DNA of 49,093 bases from a virus. Lineage: Duplodnaviria > Heunggongvirae > Uroviricota > Caudoviricetes. Location: positions 1 through 49,093 of IMG/VR virus record IMGVR_UViG_2718218136_000007; one strand, written 5' to 3'. The notes under the pieces are model-generated. The model had not been told where the DNA came from. It saw nothing but the letters and a program-made list of their open reading frames with translations, and searched no databases. This document shows positions 1,130-42,560 of the stretch, one piece after another. Positions within the stretch are counted from its first letter, which is position 1, and each line of letters starts with the position of its first letter. A program made the translations under genes and the position numbers.

Positions 1130-4100
1130 TATGCAAGCCTCACAATATAGTTAAATGCGATGTTTTTGACGGTGTTTTCCGCGTTACCAGCAGCGTTAAC
1201 GGTGATGGTGTGTCCATGTGAACCAATCGCAACGGAGTGCGTGTGTGCACCAATACCGACAGTATGTGCGTGTGCACCTGCAGATGCTGCTGTGCCGGAC
1301 AGTGAGTGGCTATGGTTACCATCTGTACTGGTATTAGCTAACGCCCCCGTAGACATACCTACTGAGCCTTGTACACCCCAGGTATTTTGACCTGAGCTTG
1401 TATAACCATATTGATAAGTATCTTTAAAAACACTGGGGTTAAATCGACGGCCATCTCTATGGCTGTGATTACCAGCTGCATTCGTGCTGCCACTTAAACT
1501 ATGGGTATGCGCACCAGTGTTATTCGTGGATTTAGTGCCGTAATCAAACGACGATGTGGTTTTCGTCCCCAAATCAGTACTGGATGCGCTGGCGCTGTGG
1601 GTATGCGATTTTATGCCGTCCTGTTCCTGAGACAATACGGCACGACCACTGGCGGGCTTGCCCTTAATCGTCCAGCCACGCATATCAGGGATCACGCCTG
1701 ACGGATAAGCGGCTGCAAGTTTCGGGTAGGCAGATTTGTCAAAAGTCTGCCCCTGCATCAGGGCATAACCAGACGGAACGGTATCTGATGGCCACGGGAT
1801 TGGTGCGCCGACTGGGTAGCTTTCTGGTGGAAGATTTTTCGAGGTATAAACTTCTGCCCAGTCTTCCTCAAAACCATAACCGTCTCTTGAAGAACGGTAG
1901 AACAGACCACCATTTCTGTAATGCGCCTTCATCTGCAAGGTCCGGCAACTTCCGACTCCGGTATAGAAGTTAACCAGAATATAGCTGTCGCCAGAGCGGG
2001 TGACATTGTAAGCGCCTGATTCGGCATTCCAGGGAACGCCACCATCCGCATCGGCATATGTATCCGTTGCCCTTCTGGCAAAAGCAGCCACATGCGCGGC
2101 GGTTAAAGTAATATCTTTGGAACCATCAAACTCAACACCAGAAACCCGTCTTGGCGTTTGCAGCTTTGTTGCTGTCAATGCGTTACCGTTCAGACTTGCA
2201 GACAGCTTGGTTCCAATAACCAGTTCGCCGGTTGCGTTATCAATAGCAAACGGTCTTAATGTATTCCATCCACCATAAACATCACCTTGATTGGTAAGCA
2301 GCAGGTAAGTTTTAGCGCCATCATTACGCCATAATGCCCCATACTCCCCACCTATCATTCGAATCTGATTACCACCACGCGCTACAATTTCGTCTGTGGC
2401 AAAAAGTTTTTTGCACGACAAGTTATCGTTAACGATTAACGAATGGGACTCATAAAAACCACGCCCACTCTTAAAATCAAGGATAACGTCCGCCGCGATA
2501 CATTCAGTCGCCGGATTTGTTGCCCCAAACTTATAGGTCGTATCATCAACAACGAGATCAGCACCAGGTGCGGATATTGACAGGCCATCTTCGATAAACG
2601 CAAAAACAGGGAAAGCAGCGCCATCAACATAGAACACAGAGCGCAAATCATCGCCCTTATTACTCATCATTATTGAGTGGATGGCTCGTTCATTGTTTTG
2701 ATATTGCCAGAACATTCCATAAGCATAACGCCCCCTGTCAGTCCAGCCACCAGGCATAACAAATCCGTTAAACTCGCAGTTATTCATCGGATCGCCTGCG
2801 GTTCGCGTTGCCGTGGTGATAATGACCCTTGATGCCAGTTCGCTTACTGAGCCAGCAGAACGCATAACAACAACAGGATAATATTTTCCAGATGTTGCAC
2901 CTGCAGGAGCGTTAACCCGCACATAACGCATACCACGCTTATCAGCAAAGTCTGTTTTACTGACCGCGTTAATGTTGTTCAGGAAGCGTCCCTTATCGGG
3001 TATATCAGCGCCGTTCTGGTCTTTCTGCAGACGTTTCTCTGCATTGTCATAGGCTGCTTTTACTGCCTTTGGCGTTGCCGCCAGCGTTTCAGACGTGCTG
3101 TTGGTCGCGCTGCTGAGCTGTACTATCCCCTTTTTCGTCGTGCTCGCATCCTCAAGCGCCACGGCGGATGCAATATCCTCTGCCCGTTTTGCCGCTGTCT
3201 CGGCGCGCGTTGCTGCAGATTCCGCCGTACTTTTGCTCTGTGCTGCCGCCGTCGCACTGCCAGCTGCCTCTGTCGCCTTCGTGGATGCTGTCGTGGCGCT
3301 GCCCTTCGCTGCGGACGCTTGTCTGGTCGCCTCATCTTTTGAAGCAGACGCCGATGATGCCGATGACGCCGCCGAACTGGCGGACGATGCGGCAGCCGTT
3401 TTTGAGGATTCTGCGCTGGTTTCCGACGCTTTCGCGTTCGTCTCGGATGTCTTCGCTGCGGAAGCAGACCTCGCTGCTGCGCTGGCCTGTTCAGTGGCTT
3501 CGCCAGCCTTCGTTGTGGCTGTTGAAGCAGACGATGCGGCACTTTCTGCCGATTTTCCGGCGGCGGTGGCACTGGCTGAGGCCTGCCCGGCACTTGTTGA
3601 CGCTGCACTGGCAGACGACGCAGCCGCTGTTTTTGAGCCTGCCGCAGCCGAGGCGCTCTGTCCCGCTGCCGTTTCAGAAGACCTGGCGTTTGTCTCGGAC
3701 GTCTTTGCCGCCTTCGCGGAATTGCCTGCTGCCGTTGCCGAGGAAGCGGCACTACTGGCGCTTGATGATGCGTTCGTTTCTGATGATTTCGCTGCCTCTT
3801 TTGAGGCCGCCGCATCCCGGGCTGAGGTGGCAGCTTCTGACGCCTTCATGGTCGCGGCGGATGCAGAAGTGGCTGCTGATTGTTGTGACGCTGCCGCATT
3901 CGTTTCCGACGTTTTCGCCGCAGCGGCACTGGTGGCTGCCGCGCTTTTTGAGGACTCTGCAGCGGCAGCACTTTTTTCCGCTTCACTGGCCTTTGTTGAT
4001 GCCGTTCCTGCGCTGGAAGATGCTGACTGAGCCGACGTCGCGGCCTGCCCGGCTGATGTGCTGGCTGCACGTGCTGAGCCTGCAGCATCAGTCGCATGGG

Positions 4101-4527
4101 TTGCCGCCTCACGGGCTGATGTGCCGGCATCGCTGGCTGACTTCTTCGCGGCTGCCGTGTTCTGTGCCACCGCGGACGCGTTACGCGCCACCTCTTCCAC
4201 CATCAGTTCAAAACGGCGTAGTGCCTCCGGACGGGCATCATCCTCCGTCATGGCACCGAGAAAATCATTCAGCGTACCGGGTCGGGAATCTTCATACACG
4301 GTGATGGTCCCGGCATGTGACGGCGGGAATCCTTCCACCAACAGAATAACGCTGTACTGACCGTGCTCAACGTCCATGCTGTAACGCCCGGCTTCATCCG
4401 GATTTTCTGAGGCCAGCGTGTTCACCACCACCGTGGTGCTGTTACGTTTTGCTTTCAGCTGGATTGTGCAGTTCTGTACCGGTTTTCCTGTGCCGTCTTT
4501 CAGTACACCTGAAATCTTTACTGCCAT
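1129..4527 (-). CDS. stf: Side tail fibre protein (Stf) with long Ala/Ser/Thr-rich repeat region and C-terminal HxH-motif tip
   Basis: N-terminus [26 protein letters not shown] and C-terminus ...[11 protein letters not shown] match lambda Stf as recalled; ATG at 4527 (track start 4533 is an upstream GTG); KTSETNA-type repeats; GAHTHS/GNHSHS/GAHAHT motifs. Confidence 0.85.
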
Positions 4528-4591: not shown

Positions 4592-5191
4592 TCAGAACTT
4601 ATAACCGACACCCACGATGAAACCGTCAGTGCGCCAGTCGCCACTGCCGGAGCCTTCATAAGCAATATCAATGGCCACGGATTCGGTCGGGTTAAACTGC
4701 ACGCCAGCTCCCCACGCCAGAGACGTGTTGCTGTGGCGACCGTCATCACTTCCGGTCAGCACATCGTGCGTTTTCCCCTTGTTGTCAGTTACGCGGAGAT
4801 AATCCCCGGAGAAAGTCGACACACGGCTGTAAGCCACACCCGCCATCGCATACGCGCTGAACCATTCATTCACGCGCACAGACGGCCCCGCCATTACGCT
4901 GAACCAGCGGTTACGAACGGAATCTTCATGCCAGCGGGTATCGCTGTAACGGGTCAGCTGGCGATTCTTGTCTCCTGCATAGCTGAATGACGTCACCAGC
5001 CCCAGTGTGTCCGTAAACTCATAACGGTATTTCACGTTAATCCCGTTCAGATCATCACTGCCGGGGACGTTCGTCGAGGCATGAAGATACCCCGCGCTCA
5101 GCGTGGACTGATGTTCAGACGCCCATGCAGGCGCACCGGATACGGCCAGACAAATGGCTGCGGACAAAATTGCTGCACAAACTTTACGCAT
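4592..5191 (-). CDS. lom: Outer membrane protein Lom (Ail/Lom family)
   Basis: 199 aa, N-terminal signal peptide MRKVCAAILSAAICLAVSGAPAWA, beta-barrel-like alternating pattern, ends ...GVGYKF; position between J and stf as in lambda. Confidence 0.85.
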   Translation of the reverse strand: MRKVCAAILSAAICLAVSGAPAWASEHQSTLSAGYLHASTNVPGSDDLNGINVKYRYEFTDTLGLVTSFSYAGDKNRQLTRYSDTRWHEDSVRNRWFSVMAGPSVRVNEWFSAYAMAGVAYSRVSTFSGDYLRVTDNKGKTHDVLTGSDDGRHSNTSLAWGAGVQFNPTESVAIDIAYEGSGSGDWRTDGFIVGVGYKF

Positions 5192-35948: not shown

Positions 35949-36181
35949 GCTGCACCTCCGAGATGCTTCATGTTTTTTCCGGAGCGAAAGGTTATAAGCG
36001 GCATACTGACGCGGTAATTACGGCCCAGCGGTTCACAAATCACCTTCTGACATTCACGGTCAACCAGGCTAACACGTAGAACATGCCCTGCAGGCGTGGT
36101 GTACCACTGCCCAACTGTAGGAATTGATGTTTTTTTACGCTGAAATAAACGGTAAATGTTGAGGATCAACGGATTAAGCAT
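35945..36181 (-). CDS. Hypothetical protein (78 aa)
   Basis: ORF only; stop overlaps the replication gene start. Confidence 0.35.
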   Translation of the reverse strand: MLNPLILNIYRLFQRKKTSIPTVGQWYTTPAGHVLRVSLVDRECQKVICEPLGRNYRVSMPLITFRSGKNMKHLGGAA

Positions 36182-37010
36182 GACGATGCCCTCCGCTGAT
36201 ATTCAGGAGACGGTGAATATGAAAATTAGCCTTATCCGCCAGACGAATACGTTCAGCCTGCAAGTTAATAAGGGTTTCTACCAGAACCTGATGCGCCTGC
36301 GGATCCGAAAGAGTTACCTTGCGCAGAGCACGTAGTGCAGTTGTTACATAACTGAGTTTATGTAAGTCTTCATCATTCAGACGAGTGAGGGCTGGGACAG
36401 TAGCCATGATGGCAGCCTCCTTGATCGGTGAAATACTTCCACCACCGGAAACGCCAATTTCGCTGGTGGTGAACTGAACGGGGTTGGCGTAACCGGTGAT
36501 CAAGGAAACCGGCGCATCTTTCGATGCCCCCGCCCAGCCCACCATAACTTTGATGTGAGCAAATGCGGACGATAAAAAAGACGCTGGCGCGTCATATATC
36601 GCCTTGATCAATTCCAGGACGCCAATCCCGGCACCCGCTTTATAAGGTGCCTGAACAGTGTAACGTCCCGGAATGGCAGAATCAATGTGCTGGTGGTCCT
36701 TCACACTCAACAAAATCACGCCTGAATTTCCACAAAGGACTAAAGCACTCATGCGGGTAGTCTTTGCGAAGATAGATAACGCGCTGTGTTTCTGGTTCCC
36801 AACGAATAACATGGACATAAAGCCCTCTTCCGTCACGAAACCAGCGGTTAAGTTCCCGCACAACTCGCCCCCCACAGTCAGGTAAAGTTCTCTGTGGTTA
36901 CTTACAGCCAGGTGATTTGGTAATCTGCATTCATGCCGTAACAACAGGTGTTCAGCGACACTGACCACCAGCTGTTGCGACAAACGGTTATTTGCCGTTA
37001 AACTGTTCAT
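36174..37010 (-). CDS. Hypothetical protein (278 aa)
   Basis: ORF in operon context between the cII-like and replication genes; no family recognised by eye. Confidence 0.45.
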   Translation of the reverse strand: MNSLTANNRLSQQLVVSVAEHLLLRHECRLPNHLAVSNHRELYLTVGGELCGNLTAGFVTEEGFMSMLFVGNQKHSALSIFAKTTRMSALVLCGNSGVILLSVKDHQHIDSAIPGRYTVQAPYKAGAGIGVLELIKAIYDAPASFLSSAFAHIKVMVGWAGASKDAPVSLITGYANPVQFTTSEIGVSGGGSISPIKEAAIMATVPALTRLNDEDLHKLSYVTTALRALRKVTLSDPQAHQVLVETLINLQAERIRLADKANFHIHRLLNISGGHRHA

Positions 37011-37570
37011 GCGTTAGTTTCTCCACAGACACAAAACGCCACGACGCCCGGAGCTGCACACTCGCGGGCGTCACTCTTTTCTGGAGCGCAAAAGATTTTG
37101 TAGACCAGTGCTGCATGCTCTTGGAGCTTCGAAATTGACAGATACAACTCATCATTAATTGCTGTCTGCTCGTGTGGCTCCACGACCCCATCTTCGATTG
37201 CCGAACGAATCTGCTTTGAGTAATTCCCGATCTGTTCGATGACTTCCAGCAGGCGCTGGTTTATATCGGCGTTCTCTACTTCCTCAATTTCAGGAAGCGA
37301 TACGAACACCCCACCAGCAGACTGTGCGACAGCATCCGCAATGTAGTGAGTGCCAGCCGCGCGCTGTAAAACCATTGCCCATCCCAGCGGGAAAATCTGA
37401 TCGCCATCGGCACGAAGGCGGTTAAATAATGCGTTCTCTGTTACATCCAGCCAGTCAGCTGCTTCAGCGTAACCACCCGGCAACGCTGCGATAGTTTTTC
37501 TGACAGCTTTCACGTACCACTCAGGCTGTTTTTCTACTTTCCAGTGATACTTACCCACGGTTAGCCTCAT
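37007..37570 (-). CDS. Putative CII-like regulatory protein (phage 186 CII / CP76-like)
   Basis: 187 aa immediately downstream of cro-like gene; loose similarity in organisation to the 186 CII family; weak. Confidence 0.4.
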   Translation of the reverse strand: MRLTVGKYHWKVEKQPEWYVKAVRKTIAALPGGYAEAADWLDVTENALFNRLRADGDQIFPLGWAMVLQRAAGTHYIADAVAQSAGGVFVSLPEIEEVENADINQRLLEVIEQIGNYSKQIRSAIEDGVVEPHEQTAINDELYLSISKLQEHAALVYKIFCAPEKSDARECAAPGVVAFCVCGETNA

Positions 37571-37601: not shown

Positions 37602-37802
37602 TTAATCTTTCGGATAGATATCCGGTCTTAAGTCAGATTTCGTAATTGCACCTGACGTGCATTGCTCAAGTTTTTTCGCCAGCACAAAACTGGCTTTTTT
37701 ATAACCATTGAAAACCAGCCGTAAGTAGCCAGGTGTTGAGCCAACTTTTCCGGCCAACTCGCCCTGCTGTTCTTTGGTTAAAGAGTCCCAATACGCTTTC
37801 AT
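37602..37802 (-). CDS. Cro-like repressor (66 aa HTH)
   Basis: MKAYWDSLTKEQQGELAGKVGSTPGYLRLVFNGYKKASFVLAKKLEQCTSG... HTH; ATG at 37802 with GGAGG 9 nt upstream; divergent from cI-like gene; track ORF extends upstream. Confidence 0.75.
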   Translation of the reverse strand: MKAYWDSLTKEQQGELAGKVGSTPGYLRLVFNGYKKASFVLAKKLEQCTSGAITKSDLRPDIYPKD

Positions 37803-37807
37803 ACAAT

Positions 37808-37886
37808 ATGTACCTCCGATATACATATTACATGATTGAAATGAACCTTCAAGATACTTGTACCTTATCGGTACAAAGGTTTTAAT
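37808..37886. promoter_or_regulatory. Right operator/promoter region: two 7-5-7 palindromic operators plus candidate pR and pRM
   Basis: O-a ATGTACC-tccga-TATACAT (37808-37826); O-b TTGTACC-ttatc-GGTACAA (37858-37876); pR on minus strand -35 TTGAAG (37852-37847), -10 TAATAT (37830-37825); pRM on plus strand -35 TTGTAC (37858-37863), -10 TTTAAT (37881-37886), implying a nearly leaderless cI mRNA. Confidence 0.55.
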
Positions 37887-37892
37887 TTCGTT

Positions 37893-38567
37893 ATGAAAAC
37901 AATCCATGACATCCGGCGGTCTAACGCCAGAAAACTGAGAGATGGTGTTGGCGGGAATTCTTCCTTTGCCACCATGATTGATCGCGAGCCAACCCAGACC
38001 AGCAGGTTTATGGGAGATGGTGCTACTAAAAATATCGGTGACAGCATGGCGCGGCACATCGAAAAATGTTTCGACCTGCCTGTCGGATGGCTTGATCAAG
38101 AACACCAGACCACGAACATCACAAAAAAACCTGATGTTTCAATCACTAACAAACAAATAACGTTAGTCCCTGTCATATCATGGGTACAGGCCGGAGCATG
38201 GAAAGAAGTTGGCTATTCTGAGGTTGATTTGAGCACAGCAGAAACTTACCCCTGCCCTGTACCCTGTGGCGAAATGACTTATATCTTGCGGGTGATTGGT
38301 GATTCAATGATTGATGAGTACCGCCCTGGAGACATGATTTTTGTTGATCCCGAAGTCCCTGCCTGCCACGGTGACGACGTTATTGCATTGATGCACGATA
38401 CAGGCGAAACCACCTTCAAGCGATTGATAGAAGATGGAACACAGCGTTATCTCAAAGCATTAAACCCAAACTGGCCTGAGCCTTACATTAAGATTAACGG
38501 TAATTGCTCTATAATTGGTACAGTGATTTTCTCGGGAAAACCAAGAAGATACACAATAAAGGCCTAA
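37893..38567 (+). CDS. CI-like prophage repressor (HTH plus S24 LexA-like autopeptidase domain)
   Basis: 224 aa; C-terminal ILRVIGDSMIDEYRPGDMIFVDPE with Ser in GDSM and downstream Lys, typical S24 dyad; divergent from cro. Confidence 0.85.
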   Translation: MKTIHDIRRSNARKLRDGVGGNSSFATMIDREPTQTSRFMGDGATKNIGDSMARHIEKCFDLPVGWLDQEHQTTNITKKPDVSITNKQITLVPVISWVQAGAWKEVGYSEVDLSTAETYPCPVPCGEMTYILRVIGDSMIDEYRPGDMIFVDPEVPACHGDDVIALMHDTGETTFKRLIEDGTQRYLKALNPNWPEPYIKINGNCSIIGTVIFSGKPRRYTIKA

Positions 38568-38606
38568 TCAATATTTATGAATCTGCTTCGGCAGGTTTTT
38601 TTATAC

Positions 38607-38634
38607 TTGACAATGTACCCATGAGATACATAAT
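38607..38634 (+). promoter_or_regulatory. Candidate pL promoter (-35 TTGACA, 16-bp spacer, -10 CATAAT) with overlapping operator palindrome ATGTACC-catga-GATACAT
   Basis: TTGACA at 38607-38612, CATAAT at 38629-38634; operator at 38613-38631 shares the half-site with the oR operators. Confidence 0.55.
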
Positions 38635-39053
38635 GTATCCAAAAGAAACATGAGGCAGGCAAGATTCAAACAAAATTTGGTTGTAACACGGCGTATGGCA
38701 CATGCGTCGTTAGCGGTCTGGGGACGTTAAAGGGGACAATCCACTTCTTGCTCGGGCAAACAAACCAGGTAGCCGGAATGTGCAAGTCAATGATGATGCT
38801 GATAAGACGCCTAACCAGCGTGGCGATCCGGTTTGACGCCTGGGAAGAGACCAGGGTGCAACGATGAGGGCATTTATAGAGCCGCGACAAAGTGTGGTGC
38901 CGTAACTGGCTAAGTGCTCTCAGCGTTGTGGTAATCCGCGAAATGGCGCGGCGGTAAGTATGGCGGGGTTACTCTTTCCCCGTTGAGGACACCGGATTGT
39001 CAGGTTGACCATACGCCTGAGTGACAACCCCACCACAACAGCCACTGCTTTGG

Positions 39054-39099
39054 CGGTACCAGTTTGTACACTTGCTTCCGGCTGGTACCGCTCTTTTTA
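39054..39099 (+). terminator. Terminator-like hairpin in the pL leader (perfect 9-bp stem CGGTACCAG/CTGGTACCG, 19-nt loop, then CTCTTTTT); overlaps a boxA-like CGCTCTTTTTA
   Basis: Stem arms 39054-39062 and 39082-39090; T-run 39093-39098; followed by a long imperfect hairpin 39100-39186. Confidence 0.4.
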
Positions 39100-39235
39100 C
39101 AAAATAGAGAAGAGCATCACCGGACGACGGGCTCATAACCCAATCCATCCGGGCGGCTGCCACCGCAGGTGTTCTTCTCTGTTTTGTGGAGAAACCAACC
39201 GACCTTGCAGGGTCGATATGATGAGGAGCAGCAAA

Positions 39236-39598
39236 ATGGCTAGCGAACGCAGTACTGATGTGCAGGCATTTATCGGGGAGCTGGACGGCGGCGTATTTGA
39301 AACCAAAATCGGCGCAGTTCTCAGTGAAGTCGCTTCCGGTGTGATGAACACGAAAACCAAAGGTAAGGTCTCACTCAACCTGGAAATCGAACCATTTGAT
39401 GAGAACCGTGTGAAAATCAAACACAAACTCTCATATGTTCGCCCGACTAACCGCGGGAAAATTTCCGAAGAAGACACCACCGAAACGCCGATGTATGTCA
39501 ATCGCGGTGGTCGCCTGACTATTCTGCAGGAAGACCAGGGACAATTACTGACTCTTGCCGGTGAACCTGACGGAAAACTACGCGCAGCAGGTCATTAA
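39236..39598 (+). CDS. yfdP: YfdP-like protein (120 aa)
   Basis: MASERSTDVQAFIGELDGGVFETKIGAVLSEV...; GAGGAG 6 nt upstream; first gene of a yfdP-yfdQ-yfdR-yfdS array as in prophage CPS-53. Confidence 0.7.
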   Translation: MASERSTDVQAFIGELDGGVFETKIGAVLSEVASGVMNTKTKGKVSLNLEIEPFDENRVKIKHKLSYVRPTNRGKISEEDTTETPMYVNRGGRLTILQEDQGQLLTLAGEPDGKLRAAGH

Positions 39599-41231: not shown

Positions 41232-42560
41232 CTGAGAGATCCCCTCATAATTTCCCCAAAGCGTAACCATGTGTGAATAAATTTTGAGCTAGTAGGGTTG
41301 CAGCCACGAGTAAGTCTTCCCTTGTTATTGTGTAGCCAGAATGCCGCAAAACTTCCATGCCTAAGCGAACTGTTGAGAGTACGTTTCGATTTCTGACTGT
41401 GTTAGCCTGGAAGTGCTTGTCCCAACCTTGTTTCTGAGCATGAACGCCCGCAAGCCAACATGTTAGTTGAAGCATCAGGGCGATTAGCAGCATGATATCA
41501 AAACGCTCTGAGCTGCTCGTTCGGCTATGGCGTAGGCCTAGTCCGTAGGCAGGACTTTTCAAGTCTCGGAAGGTTTCTTCAATCTGCATTCGCTTCGAAT
41601 AGATATTAACAAGTTGTTTGGGTGTTCGAATTTCAACAGGTAAGTTAGTTGCTAGAACCCATGGCTCCTTTGCCGACGCTGAGTAGATTTTAGGTGACGG
41701 GTGGTGACAATGAGTCCGTGTCGAGCGCTGATTTTTTCGGCCTTTAGAGCGAGATTTATACAATAGAATTTGGCATGAGATTGGATTGCTTTTAGTCAGC
41801 CTCTTATAGCCTAAAGTCTTTGAGTGACTAGATGACATATCATGTAAGTTGCTGATAGGTTTCCAGTTTTCCGCTCCTAGGTCTGCATATTGTACTTTTC
41901 CTCTTACTCGACTTAACCAGTACCAACCCAGCTTCTCAACGGATTTATACCATGGCACTTTAAAGCCAGCATCACTGACAATGAGCGGTGTGGTGTTACT
42001 CGGTAGAATGCTCGCAAGGTCGGCTAGAAATTGGTCATGAGCTTTCTTTGAACATTGCTCTGAAAGCGGGAACGCTTTCTCATAAAGAGTAACAGAACGA
42101 CCGTGTAGTGCGACTGAAGCTCGCAATACCATAAGTCGTTTTTGCTCACGAATATCAGACCAGTCAACAAGTACAATGGGCATCGTATTGCCCGAACAGA
42201 TAAAGCTAGCATGCCAACGGTATACAGCGAGTCGCTCTTTGTGGAGGTGACGATTACCTAACAATCGGTCGATTCGTTTGATGTTATGTTTTGTTCTCGC
42301 TTTGGTTGGCAGGTTACGGCCAAGTTCGGTAAGAGTGAGAGTTTTACAGTCAAGTAATGCGTGGCAAGCCAACGTTAAGCTGTTGAGTCGTTTTAAGTGT
42401 AATTCGGGGCAGAATTGGTAAAGAGAGTCGTGTAAAATATCGAGTTCGCACATCTTGTTGTCTGATTATTGATTTTTCGCGAAACCATTTGATCATATGA
42501 CAAGATGTGTATCTACCTTAACTTAATGATTTTGATAAAAATCATTAGGGGATTCATCAG
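41232..42560 (-). mobile_element. IS10 (1329 bp) insertion sequence
   Basis: Ends CTGAGAGATCCCCTCATAATTTCCCC (inside end, 41232-) and ...GGGGATTCATCAG (reverse complement of outside end CTGATGAATCCCC, ending 42560); flanked by 9-bp direct repeat TGCTGAGTA. Confidence 0.9.
41245..42453 (-). CDS. tnpA: IS10 transposase (IS4 family)
   Basis: 402 aa, MCELDILHDSLYQFCPELHLKRLNSLTLACHALLDCKTLTLTELGRNLPTKA... characteristic of Tn10/IS10 transposase. Confidence 0.9.
   Translation of the reverse strand: MCELDILHDSLYQFCPELHLKRLNSLTLACHALLDCKTLTLTELGRNLPTKARTKHNIKRIDRLLGNRHLHKERLAVYRWHASFICSGNTMPIVLVDWSDIREQKRLMVLRASVALHGRSVTLYEKAFPLSEQCSKKAHDQFLADLASILPSNTTPLIVSDAGFKVPWYKSVEKLGWYWLSRVRGKVQYADLGAENWKPISNLHDMSSSHSKTLGYKRLTKSNPISCQILLYKSRSKGRKNQRSTRTHCHHPSPKIYSASAKEPWVLATNLPVEIRTPKQLVNIYSKRMQIEETFRDLKSPAYGLGLRHSRTSSSERFDIMLLIALMLQLTCWLAGVHAQKQGWDKHFQANTVRNRNVLSTVRLGMEVLRHSGYTITREDLLVAATLLAQNLFTHGYALGKL

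Follow-up and report, generated by a model that had tools for sequence, protein, structure and literature searches.

The leader between the CI-like repressor gene and yfdP of a lambdoid prophage (positions 38568-39238 of IMG/VR record IMGVR_UViG_2718218136_000007, the whole analyzed stretch of 49,093 nucleotides being called the window) is put together as a mosaic of structured-RNA modules that move independently, and is not an attenuator. We consider it probable that this region is a processed non-coding RNA cassette of the early-left operon under repressor control, a reading supported by homology to the experimentally dissected Qin region, by an architecture identical to that of Qin, and by a recurrent cassette structure. 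The original prediction, made from the letters of the window, had described a pL leader with a hairpin and T-run, a boxA-like string and a second, long hairpin but no recognizable N gene. It had proposed attenuation or antitermination by an RNA like HK022 put or by host factors, or a terminator that simply insulates the early genes in the lysogen, and it had suggested a covariance-model search and a folding and covariation analysis over homologues.

Modular make-up of the leader and its promoter

We compared a 671-nt query covering the region with 5,426 complete Escherichia coli genomes and 50,697 phage records by BLAST. The query broke into pieces (M1 to M5), each with its own distribution, and the BLAST breakpoints are the module borders (Table 1). 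The whole region is present at 97-99% identity in phages cdtI and 2H10 and in Stx2c-converting phages. In mEp460, PhiR40_1 and an Stx2a phage it lacks its first 92 nt, where the promoter and operators are located, and is otherwise complete. The order cI, gap, yfdP, with no annotated N, is found in all these phages. Across the homologues the recurrent unit is a promoter, M1, a tRNA or cloverleaf, and then a small RNA (sRNA) with a terminator.

Both suggested analyses were run. Rfam gave no match to M1-M4 (window at gathering threshold, leader at E up to 10), leaving the leader without a catalogued family at that limit, and folding with covariation over the homologues revealed structured modules with compensatory changes. 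An ARAGORN scan of the window for tRNA and tmRNA gave no match, and literature searches on SfV-type early regions and DicF-like leaders brought up nothing relevant. The sRNAs Pas, AgvB and AsxR were considered as relatives and rejected; they are located in the late region and are unrelated.

The strong sigma70-like promoter that had been predicted downstream of cI is the best-scoring one in 2.4 kb (11/12), and from its sequence transcription would start near 38641. The predicted operator overlap was found as two tandem 20-mers of a family, (A/T)ATGTACC-N7-GATACAT, which has three more sites in the cI/cro intergenic region (37807-37875). Because operator copies of this family overlap the promoter, we assign it as a repressor-controlled pL. 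The leader has a G+C content of 0.49-0.56, compared with 0.33-0.45 in its flanks, and a positive GC skew; against shuffled controls the whole leader folds with a z score of -3.8 on the plus strand and -2.4 on the minus strand.

The original prediction was also right that about 600 nt without a credible open reading frame (ORF) precede yfdP and that no N-like gene lies between cI and yfdP. The longest plus-strand ORF within the leader has 39 aa and a TTG start, none of the plus-strand ORFs there combines a plausible start codon with a ribosome-binding site, and the ORF list, PHROGs and Pfam revealed no N-like gene among the early genes of the window. Neither mEp460 nor the Stx2a phage has one here, and the 10 first-downstream ORFs of other M1 contexts matched only families of unknown function in PHROGs and Pfam. 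In lambda nutL-N, RNA signals occupy the pL leader together with a long hairpin of the RNase III type, which lies a short way ahead of the first ORF. The leader of the window resembles it in these respects, but its first ORF is yfdP and no boxB stands beside a boxA. A lambda-type N/nut system was rejected for the window, where an N-like first pL gene was not found and boxA and boxB are not conserved.

M1, a structured RNA at the head of recurrent cassettes

M1 is an uncatalogued structured RNA and probably a new RNA family. We aligned 46 representatives with less than 93% identity to each other, in which invariant strands alternate with hairpins that vary in sequence and length. The fold tested, four nested helices and two proposed pseudoknots, is well supported: it leaves 95.9% of the cells paired, compared with 26-49% when the partner columns are slid. 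Compensatory changes occur at 13 pairs (109 cells), and the observed covariation score was matched in none of 500 shuffles. A naive all-against-all scan of column covariation was dominated by clade structure.

A covariance model of M1 (R1) scored 160.9 bits in the window (38663-38878). Applied to 100 loci, it found exactly one copy in 98, two in L021 and none in L035, which had entered the set through a chance 16-mer match. The two copies in L021, an IMG/VR contig, lie on the same strand about 600 nt apart (3976-4176 and 4783-4983, minus strand), the sole double among these loci. The model found no match in the HK022 immunity region or in Qin, and no second copy behind pR in the window. Rfam 15 has no match to M1 in the window (E up to 10) or in five divergent M1 loci (E up to 0.5), and the M1 core sequence was not found in the papers searched.

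M1 is non-coding, because the anchor-to-anchor spacings in 84 variants take all residues modulo 3 and the variation lacks a 3-nt periodicity. That a small protein, N-like or other, was missed on either strand of the leader is extremely unlikely. Minus-strand frames over M1 are often stop-free, hypothetical proteins are annotated over the leader in some phage records, and the yfdP frame is open back to 39005. Besides the spacings and the missing codon periodicity, however, 1-nt insertions and deletions in the M3 loop are incompatible with an in-frame upstream extension of yfdP, the G-U pairs and covariance-model matches are specific to the plus strand, and plus-strand ORFs of the leader lack the combination of start codon and ribosome-binding site. 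The stop-free minus-strand frames have a compositional cause, and a hidden ORF was ruled out by the frame and periodicity tests despite them. The minus-strand hypothetical proteins annotated over the leader, for example at 3471-4024 of mEp460 (L255) and 38666-38890 of the window, are probably artefacts of stop-poor, C-rich antisense frames.

Close copies of M1 were detected by megablast in 1,330 of the 5,426 complete E. coli genomes (about 25%), including UTI89, and the matches lack an annotated feature in all 1,330 RefSeq genomes. A 16-mer of the invariant strand recovered more than 120 IMG/VR loci. A 19-mer of M1 matched 24 species-representative genomes, 22 of them Enterobacterales, with matches in Kosakonia, Citrobacter, Klebsiella, Kluyvera, Enterobacter, Buttiauxella, Phytobacter, Erwinia dacicola and others; the two matches outside this order are probably mis-binned contigs of metagenome-assembled genomes. 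The M1 piece (~38675-38931) also occurs on P1-like plasmids and in Stx-converting phages. In P1 it comes immediately 3' of tRNA-Ile, ahead of ban, and in phiV10 and other epsilon15-like phages immediately 5' of tRNA-Arg.

The surroundings of M1 follow a pattern. After the 3' end of a same-strand repressor gene come 59 of 148 copies, and these repressors fall into six sequence types with a helix-turn-helix (HTH) and a Peptidase_S24 domain and two HTH-only types. Each type has its own terminator, followed by a strong promoter with its own operators, and M1 holds the pL position in these unrelated immunity groups, at a distance of ~9 to ~140 nt from the -10 element as read off the sequences. A same-strand tRNA abuts M1 without a spacer in 43 of 123 copies, and about 35 copies have M2 next downstream. 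In 70% of the contexts a terminator-like hairpin follows within 450 nt of the M1 anchor, mostly at 300-400 nt. The first protein genes downstream are mutually unrelated and of unknown function, and none is N-like.

The commonest context is that of phiV10, where tRNA-Arg stands exactly at the M2 position and is followed by a DicF-like terminator hairpin. This unit of M1, tRNA and sRNA is closed by two tandem terminators, a third terminator comes after the next small gene, and the cassette is convergent with the terminase genes. In another group of prophages, an RprA-like sRNA with a strong terminator comes after M1; its score lies below the threshold (49.7 bits, E 0.003). Taken together, the tRNA or M2 neighbors, the RprA-like sRNA, the unrelated downstream genes and the self-contained phiV10 unit support the reading of the cassette as a processed RNA.

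Some further sequence elements accompany M1. The RprA-like sRNAs were located at 7558-7677 of L037 and 8398-8518 of L092, and the ~300 nt downstream of them contain repeated hairpins with GGAAAGACC and YUGACCAGC motifs. The motif GGYGGAGUGCGCUYYCAG stands 20-40 nt upstream of M1 in several contexts (for example L007, L020 and L004) and downstream of it in the L037 type, and a related form lies upstream of M2 in Qin (L003, 2843-2856); it may be a further mobile RNA module.

The DicF-like half of the leader

M2 is homologous to the 'dicF-like region' of P1 and, in Qin, to the 190-nt DicF precursor over the 5' two thirds of its length. The window piece 38925-39031 matches K-12 Qin between ydfC and dicB, with a match that ends 25 nt before DicF, and M2 of the window and Qin are ~91% identical in the alignment. 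A motif scan of IMG/VR, from which chance matches and one large-insertion variant were removed, gave 18 diverse M2-sRNA cassettes. In these the four-way junction is kept, with compensatory changes at 8 pairs. The sRNA behind M2 keeps the base of its terminator and has a hypervariable seed and loop; sRNAs that act by base pairing would be expected to vary in this way as a family.

The tRNA-like traits of M2 are limited to its four-way-junction shape and its genomic position, and neither ARAGORN nor the Rfam tRNA model recognized it. The CI RNA of P4 and the C4 RNAs of P1 and P7, which are released by RNase P, and the sRNAs made from tRNA trailers are tRNA-punctuated non-coding RNAs. The cassettes resemble them in that M1 abuts genuine tRNAs and the cloverleaf-shaped M2 occupies a tRNA position; they differ in that M2 does not pass for a tRNA and that the corresponding 5' end in Qin depends on RNase III. 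CACAACA (39034-39040), the consensus target of the GcvB R1 seed used by the anti-sRNA AgvB (PMC4104026), occurs immediately before the DicF-like hairpin, within the 3' strand of the stem that closes M2; this occurrence may be coincidental.

Both hairpins of the original prediction were recovered, the first as M3 and the second as M4. M3 has the GC-rich stem directly followed by a U-run that characterizes an intrinsic terminator, although a simple terminator scan passed over it, its loop being longer than 8 nt. It also has the GGCGG/CCGCC-based terminator with a U-run after M2, in a repressor-controlled prophage operon, that is typical of DicF loci, and the alignment with DicF shows UUUGGCGGUAYCAGUUU...CCGCYCUUUUUA, the base of the terminator stem, in common. 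DicF itself, which Rfam detects in Qin with 76.7 bits (L003, 3133-3184), pairs with ftsZ and pykA through a 5' region and a 3'/loop region (PMC5069750). These pairing regions are not found in M3, where the alignment has a 19-nt gap over the 5' UUUCUGGUGAC region and the loop is different. M3 is thus a homologue of the DicF terminator hairpin by position and, in part, by sequence, with a different seed and loop. The M2-M3-M4 half is DicF-like, a new member or variant of the dicBF-type sRNA locus; we file it as DicF-like and not as DicF proper because the formal Rfam test for DicF failed.

We compared 13 variants of M3 and M4. M3 has a compensatory change from GGUACC/GGUACC to GGUGCC/GGCACC, and its loop contains the 1-nt insertions and deletions mentioned above. 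The stem of M4 is highly conserved, has two compensated positions and can be extended to ~24-27 bp by pairing of the T-run with GGAGA (39188-39192). It provides the 20 or so base pairs of nearly uninterrupted double-stranded RNA that RNase III cleaves, which by analogy makes M4 a candidate RNase III site.

The boxA-like string CGCTCTTTTTA is present in the window, merely as the 3' arm of the M3 stem plus the T-run. The boxA reading failed, as the position of CGCUCUU is taken by CGCCCUU, CGACCUU or CGUCCUU in homologues; since they vary here, we regard the string as a by-product of a stem followed by a U-run inside a terminator.

The comparison with Qin gives these hairpins a different meaning. 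DicF of Qin occurs as a 190-nt form with an RNase III-dependent 5' end and a 53-nt form with an RNase E-dependent 5' end (PMC10448788, PMC5069750). Its 3' ends arise either at the terminator or through RNase III, which yields a 72-nt form (PMC5069750), and read-through past the DicF terminator yields transcripts of 1146 and 1608 nt (PMC10448788). Counted back from the Qin terminator, 190 nt lead to L003 ~3000, the first base of the M2 closing stem and directly after a hairpin, so by length alone the RNase III-dependent 5' end of the 190-nt form would fall at the M2 border. This Qin hairpin is the equivalent of the 3' hairpin of M1 in the window. A 21-bp long-range stem directly follows the DicF terminator in Qin and brackets the spacer before dicB. 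Like the window, dicBF of Qin has its early operon promoter downstream of a CI-like repressor gene (encoding DicA), and both share the order hairpin, M2, sRNA hairpin with terminator, long double-stranded stem and first ORF, as well as the base of the terminator stem. They differ upstream of M2, where the window has M1 and Qin has ydfABC, and in the 19 nt carrying the DicF 5' seed, which are present in Qin and absent from the window. The loops differ, and the long stem and the downstream gene (yfdP in the window, dicB in Qin) are unrelated in sequence. The two hairpins that had been taken for an attenuation or antitermination device therefore stand at the positions of the DicF terminator and the RNase III stem of Qin dicBF.

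P1 has M1 and an M2-like element in a repressor-controlled early operon as well. The ban operon of P1, controlled by C1 and containing three tRNAs, carries the 'dicF-like region' (75% identical to M2, with compensatory changes) and an M1 that is unannotated. In P1 a distance of 2.2 kb separates the two, their order is the reverse of that in the window, and a different terminator hairpin follows M2. Directly after M1 of P1 and just upstream of the ban ribosome-binding site (L001, ~2690-2710) is AUUUUCUGGUGAUGAC, which resembles the DicF 5' end UUUCUGGUGACG.

An intrinsic-terminator-like hairpin truly precedes the first ORF, as would be required if M3 were a mere insulator or attenuator that silences the early-left genes in the lysogen and the rest were non-functional spacer. 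This is very unlikely, as two operators already lie over pL, the cI gene ends in a terminator of its own, and the supposed spacer shows conservation with compensatory changes in lambdoid, P1-like and epsilon15-like phages and in many genera.

A probable processed RNA cassette weighed against its alternatives

In the reading that we favor, pL would fire once the CI-like repressor leaves both operators, and the transcript would fold into M1, the cloverleaf-shaped junction M2 and the DicF-type hairpin M3 with its U-run. A large share of the transcripts would stop at M3, giving a precursor of ~460 nt. By analogy with Qin dicBF, RNase III would cut at the hairpin before M2 and RNase E before the M3 hairpin, which would release M1 RNA, an M2+M3 species of ~175 nt and a short Hfq-type sRNA with a seed other than that of DicF. 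With leaky read-through past M3, the 19-27-bp stem of M4 would form, and its cleavage by RNase III would produce an alternative 3' end of the sRNA and a trimmed yfdP-yfdQ-yfdR mRNA. Our best guess for M1 is a stable RNA that is released from the precursor and binds a conserved host component.

Several points weigh against the processed cassette. M3 stays below the Rfam DicF model (RF00039, threshold 48 bits), with no match at E up to 10 in 38500-39300. M4 is mostly invariant, and the covariation of M2 and M4 is modest. The strength of the M3 terminator and the nuclease cuts are predicted, as are the transcript ends and the activity of the sRNA. In L065-type prophages a ribosome-binding site and an ORF come straight after M1, which equally fits a cis-acting 5' leader, and the place of M1 right after pL in many phages without N also fits a role in transcription elongation.

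The latter arrangement underlies the main rival, in which M1 is an RNA-only processive antiterminator, like put or the EAR of Bacillus but unrelated to them, that replaces N and lets polymerase pass M3 and later terminators. M1 indeed comes 2-130 nt after a pL-type promoter behind at least six unrelated HTH+S24 repressors and the two HTH-only types, terminators lie between M1 and the first gene, and no N-like gene follows M1 in the window, mEp460, the Stx2a phage and 10 other contexts. The invariance of its single-stranded core would fit binding to a host machine, and so would the finding of the family only in Enterobacterales save for the two contigs discussed above. We nevertheless disfavor antitermination and regard it as rather unlikely. 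A processive antiterminator would be harmful in the commonest context, that of phiV10, because of its tandem terminators and the convergent terminase genes, and strong antitermination would destroy the terminator-dependent sRNAs of the cassette. No second M1 copy lies behind pR, the tRNA punctuation suggests that M1 is released from the transcript, the P1 copy is 2.3 kb from the operon promoter, and the DicF terminator of Qin leaks without M1 (PMC10448788).

Nor is M1 a put RNA. HK022 put is ~70 nt long, has two stem-loops and is present in copies downstream of both PL and PR (PMC9378689). M1 shares with it the place of a structured RNA soon after pL in a lambdoid phage without N, but M1 is ~200-240 nt long, folds differently, is not homologous to put, and occurs in terminator-bounded cassettes too. 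The put-like identity raised by the original prediction was rejected, as the HK022 immunity region lacks M1 and phages have one copy of it, not a pL/pR pair.

A cis-regulatory sensor, riboswitch-like or protein-binding, that tunes the genes downstream of pL would be in keeping with the position of M1 at the 5' end of transcripts, with its complex pseudoknotted fold of invariant joining strands and variable peripheral hairpins, and with the L065-type arrangement. We judge this unlikely: no expression platform overlaps M1, terminators are 100-340 nt downstream with a tRNA or M2 in between, the downstream genes have no common function, and in P1 the distance to the operon promoter is again 2.3 kb.

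Downstream of the leader, the plus strand encodes yfdP, yfdQ (DUF2303) and yfdR (HD-type phosphatase). An IS10 at 41245-42515, with a 402-aa transposase on the minus strand and RNA-OUT at 42446-42515, splits the early-left operon right after yfdR. On the other side, downstream of the CII-like gene, the minus strand has a tandem pair at 36462-36650, C4 antisense RNA with 82 bits and isrK with 64 bits, followed by a regulator-like ORF (36174-36470); the pair is a P1 immI / Gifsy-1 IsrK-type module in the early-right operon.

Table 1. Positions in the window of the leader modules, their structural elements and the flanking features
Feature	Position	Strand	Remarks
CII-like activator	37007-37570	-	gene layout
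Cro-like protein	37602-37802	-	gene layout
CI-like repressor with S24 peptidase domain	37893-38567	+	gene layout
Intrinsic terminator of the repressor gene	38579-38605 (38579-38598)	+	8-bp stem and T-run
pL-type sigma70 promoter TTGACA-16-CATAAT	38607-38634	+	scores 11/12
Two tandem 20-bp operator copies on pL	38612-38631, 38632-38651		repeat family
M1, structured RNA with two proposed pseudoknots	38686-38925	+	~200-240 nt; covariance model, covariation
M1 core	38686-38860	+	covariance model R1, covariation
M1 helix H1	38689-38693/38705-38709	+	
M1 pseudoknot PK1 (proposed)	38698-38703/38778-38783	+	invariant, so beyond covariation test
M1 helix H2	38717-38721/38765-38769	+	variable hairpin inside
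M1 invariant strand GGUAGCCGGAAUGUGCAAG	38768-38786	+	
M1 helix H5	38807-38810/38818-38821	+	
M1 pseudoknot PK2 (proposed)	38813-38816/38830-38833	+	one compensated position (C-G to A-U)
M1 helix H7	38839-38843/38851-38855	+	
M1 3' hairpin, stem GAGGGCAUUU/AAGUGCUCUC	38862-38925	+	branched top; z -3.0
M2, four-way-junction RNA	38925-39039	+	closing stem GUUGUGG/CCACAAC; homology, compensatory changes
M3, putative DicF-type sRNA module with intrinsic terminator	39040-39099	+	12-nt 5' flank, 15-nt loop
M3 stem	39052-39064/39080-39092	+	13 pairs (10 contiguous Watson-Crick); -21.2 kcal/mol, z -4.1
M3 T-run	39094-39098	+	preceded by C (CUUUUU)
M4, near-perfect 19-bp stem	39100-39118/39168-39186 (39100-39186)	+	branched top; z -5.5
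M5, small conserved hairpin CGACCU-UGCA-GGGUCG	39200-39215	+	just upstream of the yfdP ribosome-binding site
Shine-Dalgarno GAGGAG of yfdP	39223-39228	+	
yfdP start codon ATG	39236-39238	+	
yfdP	39236-39598	+	PHROG of unknown function; no Pfam match

We tentatively propose, as a possibility only, that M1 founds a new class of structured phage RNA, with its length of ~200-240 nt, its two proposed pseudoknots and the invariant GGUAGCCGGAAUGUGCAAG, and that it leads a mobile 'non-coding moron' cassette. In this proposal a tRNA or a cloverleaf-shaped stand-in would set M1 off from interchangeable Hfq-type sRNAs (DicF-like or RprA-like), and M1 itself might, soon after induction, bind and reprogram a core machine of the host, for example RNA polymerase, the ribosome, or RNase E or the degradosome.

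Few prophage sRNAs are known to affect the host; DicF is one of them, blocking cell division and altering metabolism. From the locus described here, DicF would seem to belong to a larger family in which the seeds can be exchanged and the structured 5' element and the processing architecture are conserved. In many temperate phages this family is coupled to a much larger structured RNA, M1, which is absent from databases. An M1 that acts on a host machine would be a new RNA of early takeover; one that acts on transcription would explain early-left expression in lambdoid phages without N. The role of M1 is directly testable, since phages amenable to laboratory culture, such as mEp460 and P1, carry it.

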